From a bacterium (GTDB taxonomy: Bacteria; Auribacterota; UBA3054), in the NCBI GenBank assembly GCA_017963805.1, contig JAGCTE010000035.1:11839-75838 (forward strand): a stretch of 64,000 nucleotides of DNA. Reading direction: 5' to 3'. Each line of letters starts with the position of its first letter. The first letter of the stretch is position 1. The notes under the pieces are model-generated. The model saw nothing but the letters and a program-made list of their open reading frames with translations, made no database searches and was not told the DNA's origin. This document shows positions 19,289-54,257 of this stretch, in pieces. Both the position numbers and the translations under genes were made by a program.

Positions 19289-20059
19289 ATGGATCACGCG
19301 ACGCTGCCTATCATAATATTCATTCTGCTGTTTTCCGGCTTCATTATCACCATGATAATGCTGACGAAGCGGGGGAAAGAGGTCTTTTTGCGCCCCATCA
19401 ACGGGCTCAAGGTCATAGACGACGCCATCGGAAGAGCCGCCGAAGAGGACAGGCCCATCATGTTCAATCTGGGCTTCGACGACCTCTCGGTCAACCTTTT
19501 CTGCTCCCTGGCCGTCATGGGCTACGTCGTAAGGAAGGCCGCGAAGCTCTCGATGCCGGTCTACGTTCCTTTGGCCCAGCCTTTGGCCTACGCCATGGCT
19601 GAGGAGTTTTGGAAAGACGGATACGCGGCGATGGGCAAGGAAGGCATGTTCGCGGTCGAAGACTGCCTCAGGTACATGTCGTCCAACCAGTCGGCCCTGG
19701 GCGCCGGCATCGCCGGCTGGATCAAAAGGGACCATGTGGGCGCGAACTTCATGTTCGGCACCTACGGCTTCGAATCGATGATGCTGGCGGAAGCGGGCCA
19801 GCAGGCCGGGGCTTTCCAGATCGCCTGCACGCCGAGCTTCTACCAGGTGCCCTTTTTCATGGTCTCCTGCGATTATACGGTCTTCGGCGAGGAGTTCTAC
19901 GCCGCGGGCGCCTACTTCAACCGCGACCCTGTTCTGACGGGAAGCCTTGTGGGCCAGGACTATTCGAAGCTTGTGCTTCTTATCCTCATCGTCTTGGGCA
20001 GCCTGCTTCTGACTATTTTCCAGACGACCGATTACCTGCGTCTTTTGTTACAGTGGTGA
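19289..20059 (+). CDS. hypothetical membrane protein (first gene of a 4-gene operon)
   Basis: N-terminal TM helix (LPIIIFILLFSGFIITMIML), a C-terminal TM helix, and a soluble middle region. No motif recognised. Confidence 0.55.
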   Translation: MDHATLPIIIFILLFSGFIITMIMLTKRGKEVFLRPINGLKVIDDAIGRAAEEDRPIMFNLGFDDLSVNLFCSLAVMGYVVRKAAKLSMPVYVPLAQPLAYAMAEEFWKDGYAAMGKEGMFAVEDCLRYMSSNQSALGAGIAGWIKRDHVGANFMFGTYGFESMMLAEAGQQAGAFQIACTPSFYQVPFFMVSCDYTVFGEEFYAAGAYFNRDPVLTGSLVGQDYSKLVLLILIVLGSLLLTIFQTTDYLRLLLQW

Positions 20060-20065
20060 CAGATT

Positions 20066-21706
20066 ATGAGCAAACGCAATATTCTTAAAATAATCGCTTT
20101 TGTGGTCGGGCTGTACTTCTTTTTGGAGTACATCCTGCCGGAGAAGGTGGGCGGCGACTTCGACTCCTACGAGGTGGGGAGCCCGGTCTGCGTCGAGAAA
20201 GACGGGAAGAAGCTGCAGTTCTACGTTGGCAATTACTACAAAGGCCGCGGGATCATCGGCCGCATGGTCAAGGTTTCCGGCAAATGGAGAAAGGATGCCG
20301 AGCCCTGTTTGCAGCGCTCGCTCTTTCTGAAGTTCGACCAGTACGGACTGACCGACCCGGACGTCGCTTTGTCGCCGGAAGGCTTGACGCTTCTGTACCT
20401 CGGGCAGAACGAAAAGGAGCCGGTGCTTTGCTACGCCGTCAGCTCCGACGACGGCCAGACTTTCAAAAAGAAAGGCCCGGTGGTGCTGTCGACCAACGAC
20501 GTCTTTCAAACTTTCGAGAACGCGCCCAACGGCCTAATACCCGACAGGATCAAGGCTTTCGCCGCCGATTACAAAGGAGGCGTCTGGGACGTTTACCTTT
20601 TCACCATGACTTACCGCGTCTGGCGCGCGACAGGGCCGGATCTCAAGCATTTGAAGTTGGACGGGGAGCCGCTTTCCGCCTCCGCCCTGACGGAAAAATC
20701 CCCCAATTCCTTCGACGTTTTCACGGAGGGAGGATCCCCGGTCCTCGTTTACGTCATGGACAGGGAGATCATAGAGTTCAGGAAGAGCGGTTCCGATTGG
20801 ACGCCTAAAAGCTGGAAGGCGCCTTTAGGCAACGGCACGAACGACACTGTCTACGCGGGCGGCCGTATCGATCCCGGCGACGGCACGCTTTACCTCGGAA
20901 CGAAGAAGATGCAGAAGGCCCGTCCCATCGACTCGCCTTACGAAACGGCGCTCTGCGCCGTCAGCCTGCGCGACAAGGGAAACGGCGAGCCGCTGGCCCC
21001 CGAGATGACGGTCTACAAGAAAGTGGGCGCCTCTCCCAGGCCGACGTACCTTTCCTACGGCACCGAGTGGGCCGGCAAGTTCCTGACGGTCGTAGGCTCG
21101 TTCGCGATCTTCATCGCGATGATAAACCTGATGCTCTTCCACGGAAAAAAGATCTACCAGAGCGCCCTCAATTACAACGCGCCGGTCGGGGAGGAGAAGC
21201 TTCCCGGCGGCGGAGCGCCAATGAGGAACTTTTTGAAGAACGCCGGCTACAGCGCGGTCTTTTTGGTCTTCTTGGCCGTCATGATCGTCTGCGCCCTTAA
21301 GGGCCAGACCGACGAGGCGAAAGGCACGATCTGGAAGACCTCCTTCGACTTTTTGTTCAACGCCATCCAGGCGCCCATGGGCAGCGCGGTCTTCTCGATG
21401 ATCACCTTCTACATGATCAGCGCCGCCTACCGTTCCTTCAAAGTCAGGAGCCTGGAAGCGGGCTTCCTTATGGCGGCCGCCATCGTCTGCATGGTCGGAC
21501 AGATGCCGATCGGCGAACTTTTGGCGTCTTTCGTGCCGGAAGGCTGGAAGCTCCTGCAGCTTCCCTGGCTGTCCGGAAAGCTCCTTAGCGTGCTGAACGC
21601 CGCGGCCTACAGGGCGGTGCTTATCGGCACTCTGATTGGCAGCGTGGCGATATCTTTGCGAATCTGGCTCGGACTCGATAACAGCGTATATTCGTCGGTG
21701 GATTGA
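20066..21706 (+). CDS. hypothetical polytopic membrane protein with a periplasmic domain carrying a BNR-like motif
   Basis: N-terminal TM helix, a ~330-aa extracytoplasmic domain containing SSDDGQTF (BNR/Asp-box-like), then about 5 C-terminal TM helices. Confidence 0.55.
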   Translation: MSKRNILKIIAFVVGLYFFLEYILPEKVGGDFDSYEVGSPVCVEKDGKKLQFYVGNYYKGRGIIGRMVKVSGKWRKDAEPCLQRSLFLKFDQYGLTDPDVALSPEGLTLLYLGQNEKEPVLCYAVSSDDGQTFKKKGPVVLSTNDVFQTFENAPNGLIPDRIKAFAADYKGGVWDVYLFTMTYRVWRATGPDLKHLKLDGEPLSASALTEKSPNSFDVFTEGGSPVLVYVMDREIIEFRKSGSDWTPKSWKAPLGNGTNDTVYAGGRIDPGDGTLYLGTKKMQKARPIDSPYETALCAVSLRDKGNGEPLAPEMTVYKKVGASPRPTYLSYGTEWAGKFLTVVGSFAIFIAMINLMLFHGKKIYQSALNYNAPVGEEKLPGGGAPMRNFLKNAGYSAVFLVFLAVMIVCALKGQTDEAKGTIWKTSFDFLFNAIQAPMGSAVFSMITFYMISAAYRSFKVRSLEAGFLMAAAIVCMVGQMPIGELLASFVPEGWKLLQLPWLSGKLLSVLNAAAYRAVLIGTLIGSVAISLRIWLGLDNSVYSSVD

Positions 21707-22590
21707 TTATGGCTGAAGAAAACAAGAAACGCTCGATTTGGGACAGGATCCAGTTCTGCGATCCGAGAATTCTCTACGCGCTCTTCGCGGTGGTGGTCAT
21801 AGGCTTCGAGATGATCCAGATCAAGATGCCCGTGCCGAACCCCGTCTGGGTGGGAAAGCTCTACGATAGGATAGAGAATCTTCCGCCCGACAAGGCGGTC
21901 CTTATCGACTGCGACTACGGCGCCGGCAACCGCGGCGAATGCGAAGGCCAGTTCAAGGCTGTCATCCAGCACCTCTTCGCCCGCAACATAAAATTCATGG
22001 TCGTGACCTGGACGACGAACGTGGAAGGCCAGAAGCTCGGCCGCCAGGTGCTTGACGAGGTCGCCAAGAAGATGAACAAGGTGGACGGCGAGGATTACGT
22101 TATGTTCCAGGCAATCGTCAACGCCGGGGGCGTGACGCTGCAAAGTTTGGCCAAAGACATCCACGGCTTCGTCGTCAAGGACATCAACGGGCGCGATCTT
22201 GGCGACATCCCGATGATGAAGAATTTCCGCTCCATCGCGGACGTGTCGCTCATTTACCGCGTGGCCTACTCCTGGGGCGGCGTCCCCTGGATCGGCTTCG
22301 TGCAGTCCGTCTACGGCACGCCTTTGGCGGCCGGGTCCGCCGGCATCGAAAGCTCGACGGCTTACCCGTACCTGGATTCCGGGCAGCTTTGCGGGCTCTT
22401 GGCCGGTGCGGCCGGCGCCGCGGCTTATGAGAAGCGCGTGATGGAAGCCGGGATCGTGGCGGAGACGGGCATCGGCACCAAGACCGTGAGCGTCCAGTCG
22501 TTCGCGACGCTCTTTGTGGTCGTATCGATTCTTATCAGCAATTTCGCCATGTTCATGTCCAAGTGGCAGGCGCGCAAAGGCAGGGCTTAA
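21703..22590 (+). CDS. hypothetical membrane-anchored protein
   Basis: Start overlaps the upstream stop by 4 nt. One N-terminal TM helix, one C-terminal TM helix, and a Gly/Ala-rich segment. Confidence 0.5.
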   Translation: MIMAEENKKRSIWDRIQFCDPRILYALFAVVVIGFEMIQIKMPVPNPVWVGKLYDRIENLPPDKAVLIDCDYGAGNRGECEGQFKAVIQHLFARNIKFMVVTWTTNVEGQKLGRQVLDEVAKKMNKVDGEDYVMFQAIVNAGGVTLQSLAKDIHGFVVKDINGRDLGDIPMMKNFRSIADVSLIYRVAYSWGGVPWIGFVQSVYGTPLAAGSAGIESSTAYPYLDSGQLCGLLAGAAGAAAYEKRVMEAGIVAETGIGTKTVSVQSFATLFVVVSILISNFAMFMSKWQARKGRA

Positions 22591-22602
22591 GGAGGGCTGA
22601 CC

Positions 22603-23439
22603 ATGCAAAAATTCACAGGCAAAGTTTTCTGGATGATCCTTGGCGCGCTGGTTCTCGCCTTGGCGATCTTCGGCGAATTCAGATCGGGGAGCATGCCTTC
22701 CGTCGCCGCAAGGGTGAAAGACCTCGACCTTCCGAGCTTGGGCGTTTACCGCCTGCAGACCTGGGTCGCGGCGCTCTCCTGCATCGCCGTCTACAGCTTC
22801 CTCTTCAAGGAGAATCCTTTCTACCGCTTCTTCGAGCACGCGCTATTAGGCTGCGCCACAGGGTACAGCTGCGCCGTGGTCATGCGCCAGAATCTCTACA
22901 GCCAGTGGCTCGTCCCGATCAAGAAATCGGTCATGAACGTCATGGCTAACGGCTATACGCCGGAGGACGCGGCGACCATCGCCCTTATCTTCGCGGGCGT
23001 CATCGGGCTTCTGTGGTACTTCCAGTACAGCAAAAAATATTTCTGGGTCAGCCGCATCGCCATGTGCATTTCCCTGGGCGCCGGCGCGGGGCTCGCTTTC
23101 AAGGACACTTTCAACCAGCTGATCCCGCAGATCACCGGCACCTTCAAGAACGTCTGCCCCACGGAATACGTCATGCCGGGCGCCAGCCTCCTCGACCGTT
23201 TCTACATGGGCTGCGAGAACGCCATTTTCGTAATAGGCACCGTTTCCGTCCTGATGTACTTCTTCTTCGCCTTCGGCAACAAGAACCCGATCGTGAAGAG
23301 CAGTTCGAAGATTGGCCGCTGGTACCTTATGATCGCCCTGGGCGCCTTCTTCGGCAACACCTTCATGTCAAGGCTTTCCGCCCTAATAGAGCGCGTCCAC
23401 TTCCTGATGGCCGAGTGGTTGCTAATAAGTCAGATGTAG
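22603..23439 (+). CDS. hypothetical polytopic membrane protein
   Basis: About 7 predicted hydrophobic helices; last gene of the operon. Confidence 0.5.
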   Translation: MQKFTGKVFWMILGALVLALAIFGEFRSGSMPSVAARVKDLDLPSLGVYRLQTWVAALSCIAVYSFLFKENPFYRFFEHALLGCATGYSCAVVMRQNLYSQWLVPIKKSVMNVMANGYTPEDAATIALIFAGVIGLLWYFQYSKKYFWVSRIAMCISLGAGAGLAFKDTFNQLIPQITGTFKNVCPTEYVMPGASLLDRFYMGCENAIFVIGTVSVLMYFFFAFGNKNPIVKSSSKIGRWYLMIALGAFFGNTFMSRLSALIERVHFLMAEWLLISQM

Positions 23440-23499
23440 CCGCCGTTTGAGTATTTTTTTGACTTTTGTTATTATGTAAGGGCTATGGAGGAGTAGAGC

Positions 23500-23988
23500 A
23501 TGATCGGACACAGCAACAACAGAATAGAGGCGGCTGTCGCCAACGGCACTGCTTACATAAAGATATTCGGGCGCGGGACGTTCCAGACCGTTGCTGATTT
23601 CCGTGATTTTGTCAAAAGGAGCCTCGACGACGGCCTGGCCGTCTTCATCGACCTTTCCAACTGCGAGACGCTCGACTCCACCTTCATAGGGACGCTGGTC
23701 GCGCTTTGCATGAAGTCGAAAAAGGAAGGCGAATGCATGCTGAAGCTTTTCAACGTCTCCGACCATGTCAAGAATATTTTCGCGACCCTCGGCTTGCAGG
23801 GCATCCTTGACGTCAGGGACGCCGTTCCCTCGGAGGGAGGCGACTTTTCGCCCATAGACTGCACGGCTCATGACAAGGTCGAGATCACAGACCTTATGCT
23901 GGACGCGCACCTCACCCTTTCAAGAATAAACGAGCGCAACGCTGTGGAATTCAAAGACGTGGTCGAATTCCTCAAGCAGCAGCGTTGA
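23500..23988 (+). CDS. STAS-domain protein (anti-sigma-factor antagonist-like)
   Basis: The conserved phosphorylatable serine context DLSNCETLDSTFIGTLV matches SpoIIAA/RsbV-type STAS. Confidence 0.72.
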   Translation: MIGHSNNRIEAAVANGTAYIKIFGRGTFQTVADFRDFVKRSLDDGLAVFIDLSNCETLDSTFIGTLVALCMKSKKEGECMLKLFNVSDHVKNIFATLGLQGILDVRDAVPSEGGDFSPIDCTAHDKVEITDLMLDAHLTLSRINERNAVEFKDVVEFLKQQR

Positions 23989-24009
23989 GACGTTCATAGG
24001 GCTTTCGCG

Positions 24010-25467
24010 ATGAATATTCTTCCGATTGCCGTTTCCCTGCTGCTGGCCTTCCTTTTCGTTCTCGCCCTTGTGAAGGCGGCCCGCTCCAAAAGGCTCGCGA
24101 GAAAAGCCGAAAAACACGCCGCGCGCGTAAAGGAGGCGGAGGAGAGTCTGGTCAGCCTTTTCGGCCACGTTTCCCAGACGGTCAGGACTTACTACGAGGA
24201 CAGGAACGTCAATAGCGGAGAGCTCAGGGCCGCCTTGGTAAGCCACTTCACCACGTCCGCCCAAAAGAGCTTCACGAGCGGCTGCGCCGCCTATTTCGCC
24301 TACGACGGGGAGCAGGGGACGCTGAAGCTTTCCGAGTGCTCCGGCATTTTCCCCAGCTGCCTGGACATCAGCGAAGAGAAGCTTAAGCTCGTGGCCGGCA
24401 ACGACGCCAAGCTTTTGGAATATTTGAAGAGCACTTCCTTCCCGCTGCACCTTACGCCTTTCGCCGCGGCCGTCGACCAGAAGCGCGTGGTGGTCTTGGG
24501 GAAGAACGAGTGCGAAGAGAAGGTGCGCTACAAGGTTTACGCCCTTTGGGGCATGCTTGTGGTTCCCGTCCGCTCCCAGGGCGCCGTCACGGGCGTTCTG
24601 GTAATCGCGAACAAATCCCACAAAGACCAGTATGACAGCGAGGATGTGGAGCTGGCCCGCGGCATGTCCGAAATCGTCAGCTGGACGCTCAACTACCTCG
24701 CCATGATCGAAGGCGTAAGGGAGAAGGCCAGCGTGGACAGTCAATTGGAGACCGCCGCCAGCATCCAGAACCACCTTCTGCCGAAATCGAGGGCGCAGAT
24801 GGGGATCGTGGAGGCGGAGGCCTTCTACAAGACGGCTTACCGCGTGGGCGGGGATTACTTCGACTTCATCGAGGTGGACGAGGATCACCTTGGCATTCTG
24901 GTGGCGGACGTTTCCGGCAAAGGCATCCCGGCCGGGCTTGTCATGGCGTCCACCAGGGCTCTGATGTCCGCGCTCTCCAAGAACGTTCTCTCGCCCTCCA
25001 AACTTCTGACCGATCTGAACACGCACCTCATCCAGCTGATCCCGGAGGAAATGTTCGTCACGGCGAGCTACGCCGTGATAAACACAAAAACCGGCGAGAT
25101 GCTCTGCGCCGAGGCCGGGCACGAGCCGTTTTTGGCGGCTCTGGGAGGCCAGCCCGTCAGAGTGTGCGAAAACAGGGGAATGGTGCTCTCCATACTTGAC
25201 AGCGAGATCTTCGGGCCGTCCCTAAAGGACAACTCTTACCAGCTGCAGAAAGGCGACATGGTGCTTTTCTACACGGACGGCGCCGTGGAAGCCTTGAATC
25301 GCAGGAAAGAGGAGTTCACGCGCGAAAGATTGTCCGTGGCCTTGGAGAACGCCAGGAATCTTTCCCCTTACGAAGCGCTTCTCGCGATCCAGGGGCGTTT
25401 GGCGAAATTCACGGAGGGCGAACCGCCTTACGACGACATCACTCTCGTGGCCGTCAAGATCAATTAG
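24010..25467 (+). CDS. PP2C-type serine phosphatase (RsbU/SpoIIE family) with N-terminal TM helix and GAF-like sensor domain
   Basis: N-terminal TM helix. The central region looks GAF-like. The C-terminal SpoIIE/PP2C motifs are GGDYFDF, ILVADVSGKGIPAGL and FYTDGAVEA. Confidence 0.85.
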   Translation: MNILPIAVSLLLAFLFVLALVKAARSKRLARKAEKHAARVKEAEESLVSLFGHVSQTVRTYYEDRNVNSGELRAALVSHFTTSAQKSFTSGCAAYFAYDGEQGTLKLSECSGIFPSCLDISEEKLKLVAGNDAKLLEYLKSTSFPLHLTPFAAAVDQKRVVVLGKNECEEKVRYKVYALWGMLVVPVRSQGAVTGVLVIANKSHKDQYDSEDVELARGMSEIVSWTLNYLAMIEGVREKASVDSQLETAASIQNHLLPKSRAQMGIVEAEAFYKTAYRVGGDYFDFIEVDEDHLGILVADVSGKGIPAGLVMASTRALMSALSKNVLSPSKLLTDLNTHLIQLIPEEMFVTASYAVINTKTGEMLCAEAGHEPFLAALGGQPVRVCENRGMVLSILDSEIFGPSLKDNSYQLQKGDMVLFYTDGAVEALNRRKEEFTRERLSVALENARNLSPYEALLAIQGRLAKFTEGEPPYDDITLVAVKIN

Positions 25468-27155: not shown

Positions 27156-27184
27156 TTGACACAACCGGCGTTAAATAGTAAAAT
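27156..27184 (+). promoter_or_regulatory. sigma70-like promoter for frr (TTGACA-17-TAAAAT)
   Basis: ttgaca at 27156-27161, a 17-nt spacer, taaaat at 27179-27184, then an RBS aaggag about 35 nt downstream. Confidence 0.5.
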
Positions 27185-27223: not shown

Positions 27224-27784
27224 ATGCCTTACAAAGCACAGATCAAAGAGCTGCAGACAAGCATGCAGAAAGCCTTGGACCATTTGACCTACCAGTTCAA
27301 GGAGATCAGGACCGGCAAAGCTTCGCCGGGCCTCGTCGAGGACATCAAGGCCGAATATTACGGCGCCATGACGCCCATCAAAAGTTTGGCCAACATCACT
27401 GTCCCCGAGCCCAGGACGCTCAAGATCGAGCCTTTCGACGTCAACAGCGTCCAGGCCATCTGCCGCGCCATCCAAGCCTCGCCCATCGGGATCACGCCCG
27501 TTGACGACGGCCGCGTGATAAGGCTGCCCATGCCGGAATTGACCGAGGAGCGCCGCCGCGATCTCACCAAGCTGACGAAAAAGTACAGCGAGGAGACGAA
27601 AGTAAACCTGCGCAACCTGCGCCGCGACACCATAGAGAAGCTCAAAAAGATGGAAAAGGACAAAGTCCTGACGGAAGACCAGCGCAAGCAGGGCGAGAAG
27701 AGCGTGCAGACGGAAACCGATAACTTCAGCAAGAAAGTCGATGATCTCGTCAAGGCCAAAGACAACGAGATCATGACGCTGTAA
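27224..27784 (+). CDS. frr: ribosome recycling factor
   Basis: Full-length RRF similarity, 186 aa. ATG 27224 has ideal RBS spacing; the ORF track starts two codons earlier at a GTG. Confidence 0.93.
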   Translation: MPYKAQIKELQTSMQKALDHLTYQFKEIRTGKASPGLVEDIKAEYYGAMTPIKSLANITVPEPRTLKIEPFDVNSVQAICRAIQASPIGITPVDDGRVIRLPMPELTEERRRDLTKLTKKYSEETKVNLRNLRRDTIEKLKKMEKDKVLTEDQRKQGEKSVQTETDNFSKKVDDLVKAKDNEIMTL

Positions 27785-27804: not shown

Positions 27805-29007
27805 ATGGCATTAAACGTTGAGATCTCTCCCAGAAAGGGAGGAGGACTTGTGGTAGCGCCGAAAGGGCGCCTTGACAGCGTAACGGCTCCCGACTTTGAA
27901 GAGGCTGTTGACGGAATTTTGAAAGACAAGGTGAAGGTCATAATCCTCGACCTTGGCAGCGTTGATTTCCTGTCCAGCGCGGGCATCAGGGTCATCTTCA
28001 AGCTGCAGAAGGGCGTTCTTGGCAACCGCGGCGTAGTTGTAGTTTCCAAGCCGCAGCCGCAGGTCGCCAGGGTGCTTGAAATCGTGCGCGCCATGCCCAA
28101 GGAGCAGATCTTCGAGAATACGGAAGAGGCTGACAAGTACCTCGCGGCCATCCAGGAACAGGAAGTGGAAAGAGTCGCCAGCCAAAAGAGCGCGAACACC
28201 GTCGTCAGCGCGAACCTCAAGATCGAGGTCACCCCGAGAAAAGAAGGCGGCGTGATCATTTCCCCGACCGGACGTCTCGACACCATAACGGCCCCGGAAC
28301 TCGAGGCCGTCGTTGACAAGATCTTGGCGGAGAAGATCTGCATCGTCATCCTGAACATGGAAGGCGTGACTTTCATCAGCAGCGCCGGCATCAGAGTCAT
28401 CTTCAAGCTGCAAAAAGGCGTTCTGAAAGAGAAGGGCGTGGTCATCGTCAGCAAGCCGCAGCCGCAGGTCGCCAGGGTGCTGGAAGTCGTGAGGGCTCTG
28501 CCGAGCGACAAGATCTTCGAAGACATCGAAGCCGCCGACAAGTACCTCGCCATGCTCCAGCAGAAAGAGCTGGAGAAGCTGGCTTCCAAAGCGGTCGAGA
28601 AGATGTCCGTTGAGCCGAAGGCTGTCGAGAACGACAATCTGAAAGTCACCGTCGCGCCCAGGGAACCGAGAGGCTACACCGTCTCCCTCAAGGGCCGCCT
28701 TGACAGCATCACTTCCCCCGACTTCGAGAAGGTCGTCGAAACGATCATTTCCGCGGAAGCCAAGATCATCATCCTCAACCTGGCCGAACTGGTCTTCTTG
28801 AGCAGCGCCGGCATCAGAGTCATCTTCAAGCTCCAGAAAGGCGTCCTGCAGAGGAAGGGCGTGGTCGTCATATCTAAGCCGCAGCCTCAGGTCGCCAAGG
28901 TCATCGAGATCATCCGCGCCCTGCCGGCCGAGCAGGTCTTCGCCAGCGACGAGGAAGCCGACGCCTATTTGGCCAAGATCCAGCGCCAGGAACTCGGAGA
29001 AGTGTAA
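27805..29007 (+). CDS. triple tandem STAS-domain protein (three anti-sigma-antagonist-like repeats in one polypeptide)
   Basis: Three ~133-aa repeats, each with the motif GRLDS(V/I)T(A/S)PDFE...II(L/I)(D/N)L...F(L/I)SSAGIRVIFKLQKGVL...VVVSKPQPQVA(R/K)V(L/I)E(I/V)VRA(M/L)P. Each repeat keeps the SSAG serine. Confidence 0.8.
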   Translation: MALNVEISPRKGGGLVVAPKGRLDSVTAPDFEEAVDGILKDKVKVIILDLGSVDFLSSAGIRVIFKLQKGVLGNRGVVVVSKPQPQVARVLEIVRAMPKEQIFENTEEADKYLAAIQEQEVERVASQKSANTVVSANLKIEVTPRKEGGVIISPTGRLDTITAPELEAVVDKILAEKICIVILNMEGVTFISSAGIRVIFKLQKGVLKEKGVVIVSKPQPQVARVLEVVRALPSDKIFEDIEAADKYLAMLQQKELEKLASKAVEKMSVEPKAVENDNLKVTVAPREPRGYTVSLKGRLDSITSPDFEKVVETIISAEAKIIILNLAELVFLSSAGIRVIFKLQKGVLQRKGVVVISKPQPQVAKVIEIIRALPAEQVFASDEEADAYLAKIQRQELGEV

Positions 29008-29011
29008 AGGA

Positions 29012-30868
29012 ATGCCCGGCCACGGCTTCGTAAGAGTCTGCGCGGCCGTTCCGCGCCTTGTTTTGGGCGACTGCGCTGAAAACGCAGCCAACATATCGGC
29101 CCTCGCGAAGGAGGCCGCGAAAGGAAGGGCGCAGCTTGCGGTCTTCCCGAGGCTCTCCCTTACCGGGGCGACCTGCGGCGACCTTTTCAGGCAGCCGAGC
29201 ATAGCCAAGCGCGCGCTTTCCGCCCTCAGGGAGCTGATCGCCAAGCTTGCCAAAGTTGACGCGGTCTGCGTCGTGGGCCTTCCCGTTCTTCTTGAGGGAA
29301 GGCTCTACGACGCCGGGTGCGTTTTCCAAAAGGGCAGGATATTGGGGATCGAACTGAACACGCTGCCGAAAGACGGAGCTTTCCGCGTTCCGGAAAAAGG
29401 TTTTCCTGGCTTTTTCAAGATCATGTCCCAGAGCGTGCTTTGCGGGACCGACCTTGTCTTCCGGTCGGAATCTTTTTCTTTCACCGTCGGCTTCGACAGC
29501 GAGCTTTCCGCCCCTTCCCAGATCCTTGCCAGGCGCGCCTCTTACGGCGAAGTGATCGCCGTGGTCGGCGCCGTTCCCGAACTGGCGGGCTCTTTTGAAA
29601 AATTTAAGTGCGCCGCTTCCTCTTTGTCCGGACTTTGGAAAAGGGGGCTGGTCTTTGCTTCCTCCGCTTCCGGAGAATCCAGCACGGACAATTTCTACGC
29701 CGGAAGAGCTTTCGTTTTTGAGGAAGGCAGAATGCTGGCCGGCCAAAAGCAGTTCCAGGCCGAAGAGACTCTGACAAGCGCCGACCTTGACTGCGAGTTT
29801 TTAAGGTTCGAGCGCCCGCCGGAAGTGCCCCCCGGCGAAAACGTCTCCCTCTTCTCCGTATCAGAATTGAAGGACCCCAAGCCCAGCCTCGCTTTGAATC
29901 CTTTCATCCCGGACGACGAACTGGAACGCGACGCGAGATGCGAAGAGATCTTTTCCATCCAGTGCGGAGGCCTTGCCCGCCGCATGGCGCACACGAAGGC
30001 GAAGAGAGCCGTTGTCGGCGTCTCTGGCGGCCTCGACTCGACGCTCGCTTTGCTCGCGGCCCGCGAGGCCCAGGGGCTGCGAGGCCTTGGCCCGGAAACG
30101 ATCCTCGGCATCACGATGCCCTGCTTCGGGACTTCCTCCCGCACGAAGAGCAACGCCTGCGAATTGATGGAGGAGCTTGGCATAGAATTCAGAACCATCG
30201 ACATCAAGGGTTCCCTGGAGCGCCATTTCAAGGACATCTCGCATCCCGGCGATCTTCACGACGCGGCTTATGAGAACGCCCAGGCCAGGGAACGCACGCA
30301 GATCCTTATGGACGTCGCCAACAGCGAAGGCGGCTTGGCCATAGGCACGGGCGACCTTTCCGAGGCGGCGCTCGGCTGGGCGACCTACGGCGGCGACCAG
30401 ATGGCGATGTACAACGTCAACTGCGGCATCCCGAAAACGCTTGTCCGGGCGGTCGTCGCTTGGTACGCGAAATTGGTCGGCGGCAGGATAGAAAAGATCC
30501 TTTCCGACATCATCGCCACGCCGATCAGCCCGGAGCTTCTGCCGGCTGTGAAAGGGAAGGCCTCCCAGAAGACCGAGGATTCCGTCGGCCCTTACGAGCT
30601 TCACGATTTCTTCATCTACCATATGCTAAGGCGCGGCGCTTCGCCGGAAAAGCTTCTCTTCCTCGCGGAGAGAGCTTTTTCCAAACGCTACGGCAAGGAA
30701 AAGATCAAAGAGTGCCTTCGGATCTTCCTTTCCCGCTTCTTCAGCCAGCAGTTCAAGCGTTCCTGCTCCCCGGACGGAGTGGGCACGGGAAGCGTCTCGC
30801 TTTCTCCGCGCGCCGGCTTGAAAATGCCTTCCGACATTTCCTTCGCGCCCTGGCTGGACAAGTTATGA
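29012..30868 (+). CDS. nadE: glutamine-dependent NAD+ synthetase
   Basis: N-terminal CN-hydrolase domain and C-terminal NAD synthetase domain with the PP-loop VVGVSGGLDSTLA. Confidence 0.9.
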   Translation: MPGHGFVRVCAAVPRLVLGDCAENAANISALAKEAAKGRAQLAVFPRLSLTGATCGDLFRQPSIAKRALSALRELIAKLAKVDAVCVVGLPVLLEGRLYDAGCVFQKGRILGIELNTLPKDGAFRVPEKGFPGFFKIMSQSVLCGTDLVFRSESFSFTVGFDSELSAPSQILARRASYGEVIAVVGAVPELAGSFEKFKCAASSLSGLWKRGLVFASSASGESSTDNFYAGRAFVFEEGRMLAGQKQFQAEETLTSADLDCEFLRFERPPEVPPGENVSLFSVSELKDPKPSLALNPFIPDDELERDARCEEIFSIQCGGLARRMAHTKAKRAVVGVSGGLDSTLALLAAREAQGLRGLGPETILGITMPCFGTSSRTKSNACELMEELGIEFRTIDIKGSLERHFKDISHPGDLHDAAYENAQARERTQILMDVANSEGGLAIGTGDLSEAALGWATYGGDQMAMYNVNCGIPKTLVRAVVAWYAKLVGGRIEKILSDIIATPISPELLPAVKGKASQKTEDSVGPYELHDFFIYHMLRRGASPEKLLFLAERAFSKRYGKEKIKECLRIFLSRFFSQQFKRSCSPDGVGTGSVSLSPRAGLKMPSDISFAPWLDKL

Positions 30869-30928: not shown

Positions 30929-33900
30929 ATGAATGACAGTACTCTGAAAAGACCTTCGGGGGTGGCTTTGCTGGCTGTGCTGACCGTTCTGACGGTCCTC
31001 TCCCTTTTAGCAGCCACCTTCGCTTCCATGATGACCATGGAGGAGCAGGCGGGAAGCATCAGTCTTAACCGCTCGCAGTCCGATATGCTCGCCCAATCCG
31101 CCATCGAGCACGTTTACGGCCTGCTGCGCCAGGACTCCATCGACAGCCCGGAATACGACGGCTACGACGAATCCTGGTCCCAGACTTTCAAGCCGCGCCA
31201 GGGTGAGGAGCGCGTAAACGTCGAGGGCGACAAGGGCGGCGATTACGCCTGGGCCCGCTGGATCTACGTCAGGGACAACACCGGGCGCCCGATCGGCCGC
31301 TACGCGGTCATGGTCGAGGACGAGCACGCCAAGATCAACCTTCACACGGCGACCGCTCTCGGCTCCAAGCAGCAGAACGAAGGCTTCGGAACTTTCGAAG
31401 CGATGCTGACGGACGGCGACAAAAGGGGACTGCCTTTGACCATAGAAGCCGGCAAGCGCATTTTGAAATACCGCTACGGCAGGGACGAAAGGCCCGGCCA
31501 GGCCAACGTTGACGACAACCTTACCGTCACGCAGTACGGCAGCGACTCCATCGACAACAACGCCAACGGACGCTACGACGAAGACGGCGAAGGCGTGGAC
31601 GAGCCCGAGGAATACAATCCCAGCCGCCTTGTCTGGGACGACATGGCCTTCCAGTCCCTTAGGGAAGCCTTGGCGGTCGCCATGGGCGGCGAACCGACCA
31701 GCCTTTCCCAGGTCAACGCCTTCAAGCACCTCGCCACGCTTTGGAACACTTCGCAGGAGCTCTACTATGAAAAGTCCGCGAAGGCCCTGAGGCGCTCCCT
31801 TGACATAAACCACGCGGAACTAAAGCAGCTCAGGCGCGCCCTGAGGAACGCCAACAACGAGTCCGCTTTCGAGCCTTCCTCCTCCAAAATGCGCGCCCTG
31901 CTCGTCAACCTTTTGGACTACACCGACGAGAACCATACGCTCACGACCGTCGACAGCACCTACGGCGTGGAGTCGATCTGCTTCAACGAGATCATGGCGC
32001 ACGACGGCAGCTGGATCCGTGAGACCGACTGGTGCGGCTGGGGATTCCCGAGCCAATCCGGAAGCGGCGCCTCCGTCCCGGAGCACGTGCTTTCCGCCAA
32101 CCAGTTCTACGGCCACCGCTACAAGGACATGGGCAGCGTTTTCCGCTGGCGTTTCAGCAATGTCAAAAAACGGGGCAACGACTGGGAACTGAAGATCGAA
32201 AGGCCGCGCCGCCAGGCCCCGCGCTTCGACGAGTTTGTCAACACTGAAGTGAAAGGCTGGTATGAGGACCAGTGGAAGGGGGCGACCTGCATAGTCTACA
32301 ACGCCAAGAGCGAGAGCAAGGGTTTCTCCATTACCAGAAGCCAGGGCGGAAAAGGGCGCGAGTTCACCATAAAGGGCTACAGCGAAGGCAACAAATTCAT
32401 GGAGGACGTTTCCTCCAACCTCGTCAACGCCACCGTCAAGCTATACAGCACCTGGACGCACGACGGCGCCATGTGGTGCGACGACCCGATGCAGACGGAG
32501 ATCTTCTACTTCCGCCCGCTGAACCGCAAGCAGGAGAAGTATTATTACCGCGTCTACAACGCGAGCCAGGCTTTCATTCCCTCCATAGGCTACGGAAAAT
32601 CCAGCGTCAGGGAAATGGACATGGACGGCATTCCCGCCCGCTACAGCGTCCAGCAGGAGGAAAAGGACAAGAAGAACCACTACCTCCTGAAATACCCCTA
32701 CAAGGAAGGCAAGGCCCAGAAGCCTTCCAAGGAAGGCTACATCGAGGTGGTCGTGACTTCTTCCAAGAAATGCCGCCACTCCGGTTCCGGCAGGAAAGGC
32801 AAGAATATCAACTACAGCGACGCCATGTATTTCATCAGGCCCGATATCGTCGAGCTCATCAACATCTCCTCGTACCCCATAAGCCTGCGCAACTGGCAGG
32901 TCGTGGTCAACACAGGTTTGGAAGCCGAGCTTCTTGCCACCGTTGACAAGGCGGACCACTACAGCAAGGCCCGCAGCGGCTTCTACGAAGACCCGAACCC
33001 GATAATAGAGCCGAACGGATATTTTTACCTGACCAACAACAGGGAGATCTTCGACATCGAATACTGCGGCGGCAACGGCAACTACGGCCGCAGCCAGAAG
33101 ACGGTCATCCCGGTCTACGAGCTTCCCGACGAGGACTGGGGCATCCTCTACGACGTGACGAAGGTCAAGGGCGACTACATCACGGTCTCCGGCGCCAACT
33201 GGCATCACGACCAGCTGGAAGGCGAGCTTATCGAGTTCGTGTCCGACCGCCAGCCCACCGCCAAGGCGGATATTCCCAACGGCATGATCAAGTATGTTTA
33301 CGGCAACAACAGCAACAGGCTTGACCTTAACGGCAGCGACCCGGCCGGCAGCGGATTGAAAGTCGGCGACAAGATCAGGGTCAGGGGCCTTCCGCGCCAG
33401 GGCGGTTTCGTCTCCTTCACGCTTAAGAACGAATACGGCCAGGTCGCGGCCAGAACTACGGAATACGGCTCCGTCGACGAAGAGGAATTCGGATATTCAA
33501 CCGAAAAGGACGACCCGGCCCACTACACCTGGAAGAAACACTCGAAGCCGACTTTCGGCGGCACCCTAAGGGAAGCCGAGAGCCGCAGGATGAGAAGCCA
33601 GTCGAAGAACAACCAGACGCACATCAAGAACGCCGGCATGGCGAACATCTCCGAAATACAGAAGATCAAGACGGGCGACGACTGGGAGAACGTCGGCGGC
33701 GGCTCCAGGTCCGATCTGAAGACCATGAAAGCGGTCGGCAAATATTTCACGACCGCCGGCATCAGGCTCGACGCGGAGGAGGAAGGCGTTCATCTTTCCG
33801 GCTGGGCTCCCGCTTTCGGAAAGGTAGTTTCCGCGAACGGCGACGTTATGTCCATAGAGGGCGTCAGCTGGGAACCTGACACCTGGAAAGGGCACACGCT

Positions 33901-34882
33901 GCGCGTCATGACAGGCGCCCAGAGAGAGGAGAAGATCCCAATCGTCAGCAGCTCCAAGACCGGCATTACCGTCGACGGCCTGACCTCTCCTTCCGAACTG
34001 CAGCTGAAGCTCAAGAAAGGCGACATGGTGAGCGTCGGCCCGGGCTACGCCACGCCCTTTTACTACGCCACGAAAGACGGCGAGGCCGGCGAATGGGAAT
34101 GGCGTGACAAAGGCCTTGAGAAGGCCGACTACGGGCTTTACATCTTCGGGTTGAACGACGCCATCGACACGACGGAATTCCTCGAGGAGAACCACAACGC
34201 CGAGATGGAAGTCTTCATCTTCAACTACGAGACCGGCGAATACGACGCCCTGCCTCTCGGTTCCGACGAACTGAGGAACGCCGCGGACGATCCCTATCTC
34301 GTCGGCTCCAACAGGAAGCGCATCCGCTACGACAAGAACGACAGGGCTTACTGCGGCATTATCCACGCCTCTCACATCTCCGCCAAAGGCGGCATCAAAG
34401 TGAAGATAATACCCCATAACCTTTCCGGCGTCGACTCCTCCGGCAAGGCCTGGCTCGATTACGTTTACCTTGCGCCGGGCCCGACGGCCGGCCGCATAAA
34501 CGTCAACACCGCCGAGGAACGCATCCTGACCTCTCTTAAAGGCATCTCGCCGGCTCTGGCCCGCAACATCGCCAGAGGCATCGACAATTACGGCAGCGCT
34601 TCTTTGAAACCTTATAAGAACTCCACGGATCTTCTGAACGTCAAGGGCTTCACGCCCGAGATCTACGGCCCGATCGCCAACCTTGTGACCACGAGGAGCG
34701 ACCAGTTCAGGGTCCGCGTCATAACCCAGACCATCACGAAACTCTCCAAGGACGACTTCTTCAACGAGAATGCCGGCGACAGGATCACCTCGCAGTCCGC
34801 CATCGACATGATAGTCGACCGCAGCGACGCCCTTGGCGAGGACGGAGCAAATTTCCGCGTTATTTCCCGCGAATTCGAATAA
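30929..34882 (+). CDS. giant GspK/T2SS-K-like pseudopilin-family protein (1317 aa)
   Basis: Prepilin-like N-terminus (KRPSGVALLAVLTVLTVLSLLAATFA, no Glu5, as in GspK). Early DEHAKINLHTA motif (GspK DExxKINxN-like). C-terminal GRINVNTAEERILTSLKGISPALARNIARGI helix-hairpin-helix region. A ~900-aa insert of unknown domains lies between. A promoter-like TGGTAAAAT sits upstream. Confidence 0.7.
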   Translation: MNDSTLKRPSGVALLAVLTVLTVLSLLAATFASMMTMEEQAGSISLNRSQSDMLAQSAIEHVYGLLRQDSIDSPEYDGYDESWSQTFKPRQGEERVNVEGDKGGDYAWARWIYVRDNTGRPIGRYAVMVEDEHAKINLHTATALGSKQQNEGFGTFEAMLTDGDKRGLPLTIEAGKRILKYRYGRDERPGQANVDDNLTVTQYGSDSIDNNANGRYDEDGEGVDEPEEYNPSRLVWDDMAFQSLREALAVAMGGEPTSLSQVNAFKHLATLWNTSQELYYEKSAKALRRSLDINHAELKQLRRALRNANNESAFEPSSSKMRALLVNLLDYTDENHTLTTVDSTYGVESICFNEIMAHDGSWIRETDWCGWGFPSQSGSGASVPEHVLSANQFYGHRYKDMGSVFRWRFSNVKKRGNDWELKIERPRRQAPRFDEFVNTEVKGWYEDQWKGATCIVYNAKSESKGFSITRSQGGKGREFTIKGYSEGNKFMEDVSSNLVNATVKLYSTWTHDGAMWCDDPMQTEIFYFRPLNRKQEKYYYRVYNASQAFIPSIGYGKSSVREMDMDGIPARYSVQQEEKDKKNHYLLKYPYKEGKAQKPSKEGYIEVVVTSSKKCRHSGSGRKGKNINYSDAMYFIRPDIVELINISSYPISLRNWQVVVNTGLEAELLATVDKADHYSKARSGFYEDPNPIIEPNGYFYLTNNREIFDIEYCGGNGNYGRSQKTVIPVYELPDEDWGILYDVTKVKGDYITVSGANWHHDQLEGELIEFVSDRQPTAKADIPNGMIKYVYGNNSNRLDLNGSDPAGSGLKVGDKIRVRGLPRQGGFVSFTLKNEYGQVAARTTEYGSVDEEEFGYSTEKDDPAHYTWKKHSKPTFGGTLREAESRRMRSQSKNNQTHIKNAGMANISEIQKIKTGDDWENVGGGSRSDLKTMKAVGKYFTTAGIRLDAEEEGVHLSGWAPAFGKVVSANGDVMSIEGVSWEPDTWKGHTLRVMTGAQREEKIPIVSSSKTGITVDGLTSPSELQLKLKKGDMVSVGPGYATPFYYATKDGEAGEWEWRDKGLEKADYGLYIFGLNDAIDTTEFLEENHNAEMEVFIFNYETGEYDALPLGSDELRNAADDPYLVGSNRKRIRYDKNDRAYCGIIHASHISAKGGIKVKIIPHNLSGVDSSGKAWLDYVYLAPGPTAGRINVNTAEERILTSLKGISPALARNIARGIDNYGSASLKPYKNSTDLLNVKGFTPEIYGPIANLVTTRSDQFRVRVITQTITKLSKDDFFNENAGDRITSQSAIDMIVDRSDALGEDGANFRVISREFE

Positions 34883-39239: not shown

Positions 39240-42200
39240 ATGAAACGAGTTTTCGGAAATACATCCGCCCCTAGGGGCGTGGCGCTTTTGATGGTACTGA
39301 CGGTCCTTACCGTCCTTTCGATCCTTTCCGCGACTTTCGCGACTTTCATCGGCTTGGAGAGCCAGTCCGGCGCCATAAGCGTCGGGCAGACGCAGTCGGA
39401 CATGCTCGCTCAGTCCGCCCTGCAGCACGCTTACGGCCTTCTCAGGGAAGACTATTACAATTCCTCGGCCTACGACGATTACAGCGAATCCTGGTCCCAG
39501 ACCTTCAAGCCCAAAAAAGGGGACCAGGCCGTCGATATGGACGGAACTTACGGCGACAAGACGCACATGTCGCGCTGGATCTACGTCAGGGACGCCAACG
39601 AAAGGATAATCGGCCGTTACGCCGTCATGGTCGAGGACGAGCTCGCGAAGATCAACGTCAACACCGCGACCGCCCTGAGCAGGAAAGAGCAGAACGAGGG
39701 CTTCGGCACTTTCGAAGTGATGCTGACCGGCGAGAACGGCAAAGCCGGCCTGCCGATCTCCCCCGAGGCTGGCAAGAACATTCTTTCCTACCGCTACGGC
39801 CGCGACCAGAAACCCGGCCAGGCGAACGTCGACGACAACCTGAACGCCTCCCAGTACTCTTCGGACGAGATAGACAACAACGCCAACCTTCTCGTGGACG
39901 AGAGGGACGAGGGCGTGGACGAGCCGGAGGAATACAACCCCGACCATCTGGTCTGGGACGACAAGGCTTTCCTTAACATGAGGGAAGTCATTTCGCTTAT
40001 CGCTCCCAACAAGCAGAACCTCAGCCGTTCTCTGGAGAACGCCATCAAGCACTACGCGACCATCACCTCCCGCTCCCAGGAAAGCTATTTCGACGAGACG
40101 TCCGGAAAGGTTTTCCGCCAGCTGAACATCAACAACTCCGACATGAAGCAGCTGAGAAGGGTGATGCGAAACTCCAATCTGGAATACAATTTCGAGAATT
40201 CTTCGACCGCCCTGCGCGAACTGGTCGTCAACATGGCGGACTACACCGACGAGAACCACGTTTTGTCCACCATCGAGAGCACGTACGGCATCGAGGCCGT
40301 CTGCTTCAACGAGATCATGGCGCATGACGGCAGCTGGATCGTGGAGACGGACCACCAGGGCTACGGCAGGAAAGACGAGAACAGCTACCACGTGATGTTC
40401 GCCAACCGCATTTACTCCGGCAACTGGGACTACGACCGCACGGAGTTCATCCCCGGCTCCATGCGCACATACTGGCGCATAAAGGATGTCAGGACGTCCG
40501 GGAACAGGGCGGAAATAAAACTTGACAATCCCATGTACACGAGCGGCGACTACAACACCTTCATGAAAGCGGAGGTCGACGGCTGGCTGAAGGACCAGTG
40601 GAAGAACGCCACGTGCATTATTCATCACGTGACAGGGCAAAGGTCCGCCGTGAGCAAGGGATTTGAGATCGAAGGCAACTCCGCCGGCAATTCCAAGAGC
40701 ATAACCATAAGGGTGTCGGGCGGTCTGGAATCATTTTTGGACGGCGTCAAGACCAACACCGCCAACGACAGGATAAGCATCTGGTCGCACTGGATGTGCT
40801 CAGCGGCTGTCTGGACCGACCGCAAGGAGCAGACGGGCCTTTTCTACACCAGGCCGAACACTCCGAAACAGGAAAAATTCTACTACCTCATCTACAGCGC
40901 CAACCAGGCTTTCAAAAACAACTGGTGCGGTTTCAAGCGCTCCGACCTGAGGGAAATGGACATGGACGGAATTCCTTCCAAGTATTCCGTCACGCAGGAG
41001 GACAAGGATAAACGCGGCAACTACCTGCTGCGCTACAAGTACAAGGACGGCAAGCCGCAGAAACCGAATCACAACGGCTTCCTTTCGCTTTATCTGACTT
41101 CTTCCAGAAGGTGCAAGAAGTCCGGCGCGAACCAGTCCGGCAAAAACGTCAACAGCAGCGACGCGCTCTACTTTTTCCGCCCCGACATCGTCGAGCTCAT
41201 CAACATCAGCTCCGCCCCGATCTCCTTGCGGAACTGGTCGGTCGTGGTCAACACCGGCGTGGAGTCGTACGACCTTGCGCGGATAGACAAGGCCGAGCAT
41301 TACAGCAAGGCTTACGGCGGCTATTACGACGATCCCAACCCCCTGATCGCCCCCGGCGGCTATTTCTACCTCACTTCCAACAAGCAGATCTTCGACATCG
41401 AATACTGCAAGGGAACGGGCGGCTACGGCCACAACAAGGAGAACGAGATCCCGGTCTTTGAGCTTCCCGCGGACGACTGGGGCATCCTGTACGACGTGAC
41501 AAAAGTTTCCGGCTACAACTACGGGCACAGCTACATTACCGTGACGGGCGCCGACTGGAAGAAGGACCAGCTTAAGGGCGAGATCATCGAGTTCGTCTCC
41601 ACGCGTCACCCCAGAGGCGGCTACGACGCGCCGAACGGCATGTTCAAATACGTTTACAACAACACTTCGCACGTCATCGACATCGGCGTGGGCGACGCTG
41701 TCAACAGCGGTTTGGAAGCCGGCGACCAGATCCGCGTGAGGGGCCTGCCGCGCCAGGGCGGTTTCGTCTCCTTCACCTTGAAGAACGAGTACGGCCAGAT
41801 CGCCGCCCGCACGACGGAATACGGCAGCCTTACCAAGGACGAGATCGGTTTCTCAACGGAAAAATCCGACCCGGCCCACTATATCTGGCACTCTGTGAGC
41901 GCCCCGACTTTCGGCGGCACAATAGACAAGGCCAAGAGCCGCGCTTTCAGGAAGCACAGCTTAACGCACATCAAGAACAACCATCTTGCCAACGTCGGCG
42001 AAGTTCTCAACGTAAGGACGGCCGACTCCTGGTCGACCGTCGGCACGAAAGGCCGCGGCGGCGTAAAGACCCTGAAGGCCTTGAGCAAATATTTCACCAC
42101 TTCCGGTATCCGCCTTGACAGCGAAGAGGAAGGCGTTCACCAGAGCGGCTGGAAAGCGGCTTTCGGCGAAGTGAGCCACGCCAACGGCGACAACATCAGC

Positions 42201-54232: not shown

Positions 54233-54257
54233 TAAATAATACACGGTGGGTGAAAAC

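Follow-up and report, generated by a model that had tools for sequence, protein, structure and literature searches.

The 64,000-nucleotide stretch of DNA analysed here (contig JAGCTE010000035.1, positions 11,839 to 75,838; referred to below as the window) comes from a bacterium of the lineage UBA3054 (Auribacterota). On its forward strand it contains a gene, here called 3xSTAS, for which a single polypeptide made of three tandem STAS domains, as found in anti-sigma factor antagonists, had originally been predicted from the DNA letters. This prediction was borne out: an uninterrupted open reading frame (ORF) of 400 amino acids (aa) occupies exactly the positions 27805..29007, its translation contains no internal stop codon, and the STAS family PF01740 is matched in three stretches of it. 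3xSTAS is a cytoplasmic protein consisting of three complete STAS domains, each followed by a long helix, with short variable linkers between them. Its parts are the following:

27805..29007, + strand: 3xSTAS gene, ATG-to-stop ORF, 400 aa, stop codon included
27805..28209, + strand: repeat 1 (R1), aa 1-135, with STAS core (aa 1-104), GRLD loop (aa 21-24), putative phospho-acceptor Ser58, C-terminal helix (aa 106-133) and variable linker (~aa 121-137)
28210..28632, + strand: repeat 2 (R2), aa 136-276, with STAS core (~aa 138-240), Ser193 at the putative phospho-acceptor position, helix (aa 241-258) and variable linker (aa 258-278)
28633..29004, + strand: repeat 3 (R3), aa 277-400, with STAS core (~aa 279-380), Ser334 at the putative phospho-acceptor position and helix (aa 382-396)

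When the protein was compared with itself, the repeats were found to be offset by 135 and 141 aa, corresponding to 405 and 423 nt, so that the repeat length of ~133 aa and the period of ~400 bp originally given are right on average. The three copies share ~55-60% of their residues (51-62% where they were compared alongside single-domain STAS proteins), and the motif F[LI]SSAGIRVIFKLQKGVL is present in R1, R2 and R3. At the DNA level, identity is 62-66%, with ~50% of the third codon positions being different. Tandem Repeats Finder reported no ~400-bp repeat at the 3xSTAS gene because the DNA copies have diverged too far; the copies are old. Long ORFs that run antisense over the gene are without support and are the usual by-product of a G+C (GC) content of 56-59%.

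The repeats belong to the antagonist type of STAS domain (SpoIIAA/RsbV) and are not fragments of SulP or MlaB proteins. A Pfam domain count, which had been proposed as a check, gave three distinct regions matching PF01740 (E = 1.2e-49; score 167 bits, cut-off 22.6) and three matches to STAS_2. The anti-sigma factor antagonist superfamily of NCBIfam, TIGR00377, was likewise found in three stretches (167.3 bits; cut-off 53.45). The score for the SpoIIAA equivalog TIGR02886 (122.6; cut-off 114.75) exceeds the threshold only through the summing of three domains and was, for this reason, not counted as membership of the equivalog. When the sequences of PDB chains were searched, solely anti-sigma factor antagonists were matched (4QTP, SpoIIAA 1TH8/1TID/1AUZ, 4HYL, RsfB 8IH8 and TM1442). 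In the HMMER alignment to 1TH8_B, S58 of 3xSTAS falls on S58 of SpoIIAA, the residue phosphorylated by SpoIIAB, and D24 falls on D23 (FLSSAG in 3xSTAS, FMDSSG in SpoIIAA). The same holds true for the other two repeats, with S193 and S334 aligning with S58, and D159 and D300 with D23, of SpoIIAA; thus, each repeat keeps the serine of the SSAG motif, as had been predicted. An alignment of the three repeats with SpoIIAA and RsbV of Bacillus subtilis puts these serines in the same register.

The structural comparison led to the same assignment. A single repeat modelled with AlphaFold2 from 123 sequences of its subfamily yielded a predicted local distance difference test (pLDDT) score of 95.2 and a predicted template modelling (pTM) score of 0.85; in each repeat, helix 2 has the putative acceptor serine at its N-terminus, and the aspartate lies in the GxLD loop. 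The top matches of this model in the PDB, as determined with Foldseek, were SpoIIAA structures with SpoIIAB (1TID, 1TIL, 1THN and 1TH8; root-mean-square deviation [rmsd] 1.5-1.7 Å over ~95 columns), and RsbV in the RsbV/RsbW complex (6M36) was matched at an rmsd of 1.3-1.8 Å. Overall, the Foldseek probability was 1.00 for SpoIIAA, RsbV and TM1442, at rmsd values of 1.3-1.9 Å. STAS structures of SLC26 transporters ranked far below SpoIIAA (E of ~1e-4 vs 5e-7), and chains of MlaB were weak matches to the fold (E = 3e-4 to 1e-3). That the repeats might not be STAS domains of this type at all, but, for example, SulP-associated pieces, had been named as a possible refutation of the original prediction; Pfam, NCBIfam and Foldseek all place them with the antagonists. 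An SLC26/SulP-type STAS protein was also rejected because Pfam finds no transporter domain and the SLC26 structures rank far lower, MlaB because there are no Mla genes in the neighbourhood and MlaB is only a weak match to the fold, and the stressosome proteins RsbR and RsbS because there is no sensor domain in the protein and no gene for RsbT or a PF13581 protein in the window. RsbS (6JHK) was the weaker fold match, the repeats being closer to SpoIIAA and RsbV.

The subfamily to which the repeats belong consists of widespread STAS proteins of ~125 aa, occurring, for example, in metagenome-assembled genomes (MAGs) of Ozemobacteraceae, Steroidobacteraceae and Verrucomicrobiae (alignment A2; 123 relatives). 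It is marked by the motif [YF]-[IL]-S-S-x-G, by L-Q-P at helix 3, and by a C-terminal helix of the form F..S.EE.D.YL...Q, which has no counterpart in SpoIIAA and RsbV. Only two columns are invariant among the 123 sequences, the serine at the acceptor position and G21; within the C-terminal helix, F103, D110, Y112 and Q117 are each conserved to at least 90%. 3xSTAS thus resembles SpoIIAA and RsbV (TIGR00377; 1TH8, 1TID, 6M36) in its fold, in the GxLD loop, in the serine at the acceptor position and in having a PP2C phosphatase gene nearby. It differs from them in carrying three domains on one chain instead of the single domain of ~110-120 aa that is the format of antagonists, in being encoded in a probable housekeeping operon with no adjacent gene for a kinase/anti-sigma factor or a sigma factor, and in the additional conserved C-terminal helix of each repeat (aa 106-133 in R1), which SpoIIAA lacks.

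Orthologues with the same layout are well conserved. A word-indexed search recovered 26 clusters of orthologues with 71-97% identity, the complete members of which are 398-401 aa long; six clusters of shorter sequences, found on contigs of 1.4-2.5 kb, are probably fragments cut off at contig ends. When one genome per GTDB species was scanned, eight loci were found, all with intact ORFs of 398-400 aa and all in MAGs from the gut of ruminants, named either "Bacterium isolate RGIG..." (sheep, goat, yak and water buffalo) or "bacterium UBP3_UBA3054". When 22 orthologues were aligned, R1 to R3 showed no variation in the block SSAGIRV(I/L)FKLQKG, nor in the SSAGIRVIFKLQKG block or the GRLD loop; the variation lies in the two linkers between the domains (~aa 121-137 and 258-278), which are conserved in length.

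Three sequences depart from this picture. At L021:241-1543, on a contig of 2.3 kb, an orthologue of 3xSTAS is split over two frames, with ~125 nt between the matching pieces, and the gene calls there comprise only a fragment of 180 aa (P0207) and an antisense ORF; the split could be due to a frameshift or insertion, to a sequencing error, or to a pseudogene in one population. At L022:13-387, on an ENA contig of 1,480 bp, a gene for a single STAS domain (P0236; 124 aa) lies directly upstream of the next gene, which occupies the position that nadE has in the reference genomes. P0236 corresponds in its first half to R1 and in its second half to R3 of an L008-type orthologue, and the junction falls within 40 nt over which R1 and R3 match exactly. 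It is most likely a chimera produced during assembly, the alternative being a real collapse from three domains to one by recombination. P0221, lastly, which lies on a contig of 705 bp, corresponds to the first 157 aa of the orthologue P0013; it is probably a contig-end fragment.

The split at L021 and the R1/R3 chimera at L022 indicate that assemblies of the repeat can go wrong, which raises the question of whether 3xSTAS itself is an artefact, i.e., a set of joined single-domain genes, an assembly error, or a set of STAS fragments of the SulP/SLC26/MlaB type. We hold this to be very improbable, because the identical 400-aa protein is present on 12 contigs from several samples, because intact ORFs of 398-400 aa exist in eight species, and because repeats that are only 62-66% identical in their DNA are not easily mis-joined. 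The lack of a transmembrane domain and of an Mla neighbour, together with the position of the SLC26 and MlaB structures far below SpoIIAA and RsbV, argues against the last variant of this explanation. Stop codons splitting the gene into three, which had also been considered as a possible outcome, were neither present in the ORF nor in the eight orthologues, all of which are intact.

The rates of substitution suggest that all three domains are under selection to the same degree. Across nine genomes, the ratio of nonsynonymous to synonymous substitutions (dN/dS; method of Nei and Gojobori) was 0.12, 0.13 and 0.135 for the cores of R1, R2 and R3, respectively, compared with 0.37 and 0.17 for the two linkers, which points to equal purifying selection on the three cores, with no repeat decaying. 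In the eight species, 3xSTAS is still 75-78% identical where nadE has dropped to 51-58%. Any single-domain STAS protein is at most 48% identical to the repeats, which is below the identity of the repeats to each other, and orthologous repeats are 66-96% identical across genomes. These identities among the repeats are as expected if a single triplication within the gene took place before the lineage diversified and was not followed by homogenisation. 3xSTAS most probably arose when a single-domain antagonist of ~125 aa was triplicated in this way, long ago, in the ancestor of the rumen UBP3/RGIG lineage, and it has been kept intact since.

How the three domains are arranged relative to each other is a different matter. 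The full-length AlphaFold2 model, made from the alignment of 22 orthologues, was poor (pLDDT 62; pTM 0.32), too weak to deduce the arrangement of the domains, and was left out of the fold searches. It contains three separate cores, linkers with pLDDT values below 50 and no confident packing between domains, and would fit a beads-on-a-string molecule, without proving it. Instead of offering three independent sites, 3xSTAS might form a compact pseudo-trimer that acts as a single STAS module, in which one or two of the domains have a structural role. The conserved lengths of the linkers would fit such a compact arrangement, and so would the fact that STAS domains oligomerise in the core of the stressosome. 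However, all three domains keep the full set of kinase-facing motifs and have the same dN/dS, so that none of them looks degenerate; the sequences of the linkers are variable, and the model shows neither confident packing nor well-predicted linkers. A pseudo-trimer is, therefore, considered improbable.

To assess how rare the layout is, 1.84 billion representative proteins (50% clusters) were searched exhaustively with HMMER, and 5,034 matches were obtained. Among the best 150 of these, only the cluster of 3xSTAS itself was matched over the full length; it was followed, after two fragments, mostly by single-domain STAS proteins of 120-131 aa that are 36-50% identical over one whole repeat. Judged on these best 150 of 5,034 matches, stand-alone 3xSTAS appears to be confined to the rumen lineage. 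A profile search with the single-repeat alignment of 123 sequences retrieved essentially only single-domain proteins and no further multi-STAS families. Planctomycetes proteins of ~415 aa were rejected as multi-STAS relatives, as they contain only one STAS domain. The literature searched yielded no description of a bacterial protein with more than one STAS domain; all mentions of "two STAS domains" that were found concern dimers of SLC26 transporters, and STAS-only proteins are treated as single-domain proteins in a review (PMC8256260).

Proteins with more than one antagonist-type STAS domain do occur elsewhere. Tandem domains with the LSSAG motif are found in 2xSTAS proteins of 222-274 aa (P0028-P0038 and P0114) and in a fusion of a kinase with two STAS domains from a Fimbriimonadaceae MAG (P0092), but these have two domains instead of three, are ~30% identical to the repeats and belong to other lineages; none of them has been characterised. 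Closer in layout is a family of four clusters (P0098 and P0203-P0205; 562-608 aa; uncharacterised, metagenomic) in which STAS likewise occurs three times in tandem and the acceptor position is occupied by a serine in every domain (LSSAG, LSCSG and ISSSG); it differs from 3xSTAS by a C-terminal RsbW-type kinase domain (HATPase_c_2) of its own. This family is a self-contained fusion of substrate and kinase that appears not to have been described. The gene for P0098 lies at L017:854-2545, on a contig with 39.5% GC. Identity among the domains of P0098 is 29-55%, compared with 19-28% to the repeats of the window, which indicates independent multiplication; threefold STAS arrays thus arose at least twice. 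Fusions of PP2C, kinase and STAS (P0027, P0088 and P0169) contain a STAS domain of the same subfamily as the repeats (41-45% identity), but a single one that is joined to both kinase and phosphatase, whereas the STAS domains of the window stand alone and in triplicate. The PP2C-kinase-STAS architecture is also that of Rv1364c from Mycobacterium tuberculosis. In summary, the multi-STAS format stands out from the single-domain norm, as had been claimed, but is not unique, because twofold arrays, a kinase with a twofold array and a threefold array with a kinase exist elsewhere.

The genes and sites around 3xSTAS that bear on its function are the following:

23500..23988, + strand: STAS162, single STAS domain, 162 aa (PF01740, E = 2.8e-8)
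24010..25467, + strand: GAF-PP2C (SpoIIE-family) serine phosphatase with hydrophobic N-terminus (PF07228, E = 3.8e-43; GAF, E = 3.8e-6)
27156..27184, + strand: candidate sigma-70-like promoter upstream of frr (TTGACA-17-TAAAAT, 11/12 matches)
27224..27784, + strand: frr, ribosome recycling factor, 186 aa (PF01765, E = 5.6e-59)
29012..30868, + strand: nadE-like glutamine-dependent NAD+ synthetase (PF02540, PF00795), beginning 4 nt past the 3xSTAS stop codon

The stop codon of frr precedes the start codon of 3xSTAS by 20 nt, an AAGGAG ribosome-binding site lies ahead of the ATG at 27805, and no terminator-like site was found between frr, 3xSTAS and nadE. The three genes are, judging from this spacing, probably co-transcribed, and 27156..27184 is a candidate promoter for all of them, although it is a match to the consensus only and such sites are not above chance in the region. 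Co-transcription with frr and nadE would mean that 3xSTAS is made constitutively. In 8/8 species the order of genes runs from STAS162 through GAF-PP2C, the oppositely oriented comM gene, frr, 3xSTAS and nadE to the gene for a 1,317-aa protein.

The pair of STAS162 and GAF-PP2C, which lies 2.3 kb upstream of 3xSTAS, past the divergent comM-like gene, had been taken originally, together with 3xSTAS, as pointing to an elaborate partner-switching network. The pair is indeed present, and syntenic in eight genomes, but such a network is conjectural, and so is a functional link of the pair to 3xSTAS, as BLASTP detects no similarity between STAS162 and the 3xSTAS repeats. STAS162 has a weak full-length resemblance to NF045506 (RssC; 39.7 bits, cut-off 250) and, judged by sequence, belongs to a STAS subfamily different from that of the repeats. 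The translation of GAF-PP2C shows intact metal-site motifs (DVSGKG, TDG and DDIT); it is a candidate phosphatase for STAS162 and/or 3xSTAS. The two genes are the last of six closely spaced genes on the + strand (19289-25467), possibly an operon, which begins with a gene for a DUF6754 protein (19289-20059), followed by three genes without Pfam matches that probably encode membrane proteins (20066-21706, 21703-22590 and 22603-23439). The DUF6754 protein is unusually strongly conserved, being 97.7-99.6% identical over the eight species (frr: only 88-98%), and the STAS162/PP2C pair may regulate this membrane module rather than 3xSTAS.

Further features of the window were noted beside these. The 1,317-aa protein (30929-34882) has a paralogue of 1,330 aa (39240-43232), both encoded on the + strand. 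Apart from a C-terminal helix-hairpin-helix domain (HHH_3) and a weak match to the Lamin-tail domain, located alike in the two proteins, neither contains a known domain; the N-terminus of the 1,317-aa protein is hydrophobic. The gene following it encodes a protein of 708 aa as called (731 aa as scanned) with weak matches to BACON_2 and PEP-CTERM, below the cut-offs of Pfam. Between 52000 and 56000, GC content drops to 0.49-0.51 (~0.57 elsewhere). Encoded in this stretch are an ATPase of the AAA_14/DUF4143 type (52454-53797) and, beyond a 75-aa FGE-sulfatase fragment, a Schlafen AlbA_2 protein with HATPase_c_4 and a winged helix-turn-helix domain (54246-55646); the stretch is possibly an island inserted downstream of a run of FGE-sulfatase genes. 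The gene calls break triose-phosphate isomerase (tpiA, PF00121; ~16-765, - strand) into two pieces, of 36 and 165 aa, which hints at a frameshift, a misassembly or a pseudogene.

If 3xSTAS is an antagonist, a serine kinase of the RsbW type (PF13581) would be expected as its partner. Such a kinase had originally been stated to be missing from the window, and Pfam scans of essentially every plausible gene in the 64 kb agree with this statement: they found neither a PF13581 protein nor a sigma factor. The same was true for the ~6.7 kb that follow the end of the window on the same contig (125 kb). P0098 was rejected as the missing kinase of the lineage because the GC content of its contig (39.5%) differs from that of the window (56%). 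However, kinase domains are common among the relatives of the repeats. Leaving aside the family of 3xSTAS itself, the best 150 of the 5,034 matches contain ten proteins of more than 200 aa, and eight of these carry HATPase_c_2 (PF13581), among them fusions of a kinase with one STAS domain, of a kinase with two, of three STAS domains with a kinase, and of PP2C, kinase and STAS. P0027, P0039 and P0040, retrieved with the word-indexed search, also carry PF13581. By "Rosetta-stone" logic, according to which proteins that are fused in one organism often cooperate in other organisms, the frequent fusion of STAS and PF13581 implies that the subfamily normally works with an RsbW-type kinase, and it is thus indirectly supported that such a kinase is the normal partner of the STAS subfamily of the repeats. 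The conserved position of a catalytically plausible PP2C near 3xSTAS lends further indirect support to a kinase partner.

We lean, with some reservation, towards 3xSTAS being a trivalent, phosphorylatable partner-switching antagonist for an RsbW-type kinase encoded elsewhere in the genome, the multivalency being deduced from the three intact domains. The role of a multivalent sink or scaffold for such a kinase, as originally proposed, would likewise be conjectural. Each unphosphorylated domain would bind a serine kinase of the RsbW/SpoIIAB type, which would phosphorylate S58, S193 and S334, each phosphorylation leading to the release of the domain concerned. A PP2C phosphatase would reset the domains, GAF-PP2C being the obvious candidate. 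The three tethered sites would confer avidity for dimeric kinases, possibly cross-linking them, and full inactivation of the protein would need three phosphorylations, which would either sharpen or buffer the switch.

Several observations weigh against this assignment. Apart from the lack of kinase and sigma factor genes in the window and the ~6.7 kb after it and the poor full-length model, the closest single-domain relatives that could be placed on contigs (two were checked) are also without an adjacent kinase gene. The residue preceding the acceptor serine is a serine, in place of the aspartate of SpoIIAA and RsbV. 3xSTAS is embedded in a housekeeping context (frr, nadE) and not in an rsb-like operon, and STAS162, which is encoded directly beside GAF-PP2C, may be the real substrate of the phosphatase.

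Part of this evidence is accommodated by an alternative to which we assign clearly less weight, but which is the most probable of the others: 3xSTAS could be a scaffold or adaptor that functions independently of phosphorylation, its three STAS domains binding another partner or ligand (for example a nucleotide, or a non-kinase protein as for non-canonical STAS-only proteins). The protein would then form a multivalent platform that is constitutively in place and may be connected with the co-transcribed housekeeping genes of translation and NAD metabolism. The lack of kinase and sigma factor genes in the window and the ~6.7 kb beyond it, the tight and conserved packing of the gene between frr and nadE, the orphan status of the single-domain relatives, and the subfamily's own helix motif (F103, D110, Y112 and Q117), which is missing from SpoIIAA and RsbV, fit this explanation as well. 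STAS-only proteins with outputs other than sigma factors have been reviewed (PMC8256260). The serine, on the other hand, is invariant in the 123 members of the subfamily and in all three repeats, which is hard to explain without phosphorylation; furthermore, close homologues are often fused to HATPase_c_2 kinases, and the best structural matches are antagonists bound to their kinases.

Instead of being just three antagonists in a row, 3xSTAS might also be a purpose-built multivalent organiser, joining dimeric kinases of the RsbW type, or a different oligomeric partner, into a higher-order assembly that is dissolved by phosphorylation. Produced constitutively together with frr and nadE, it could couple the ATP/NAD or translation state of the cell to a switch-like output. 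We consider this extension speculative and rather unlikely. If it were true, 3xSTAS would be a minimal, single-chain counterpart of the stressosome, in which many STAS domains in one assembly dock the kinase RsbT, and the independent evolution of arrays of three STAS domains in an unrelated low-GC organism, fused there to the kinase, would be a sign that selection favours threefold valency. The stressosome itself differs from 3xSTAS in that its RsbR and RsbS proteins are many separate chains and RsbR carries N-terminal sensors; RsbT- or RsbR-like genes are absent from the window.

3xSTAS is a rare, conserved and uncharacterised layout of a known regulatory domain that appears to be restricted to one uncultured rumen lineage. 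As it stands, this is a curiosity at the level of annotation and not a new kind of system. Partner-switching modules are among the most widespread signalling devices of bacteria. The existence of both a stand-alone triple antagonist and an independent fusion of three STAS domains with a kinase shows that valency is a variable that evolution has explored in them, and 3xSTAS is a natural test case for the roles of multisite phosphorylation and avidity in such switches.

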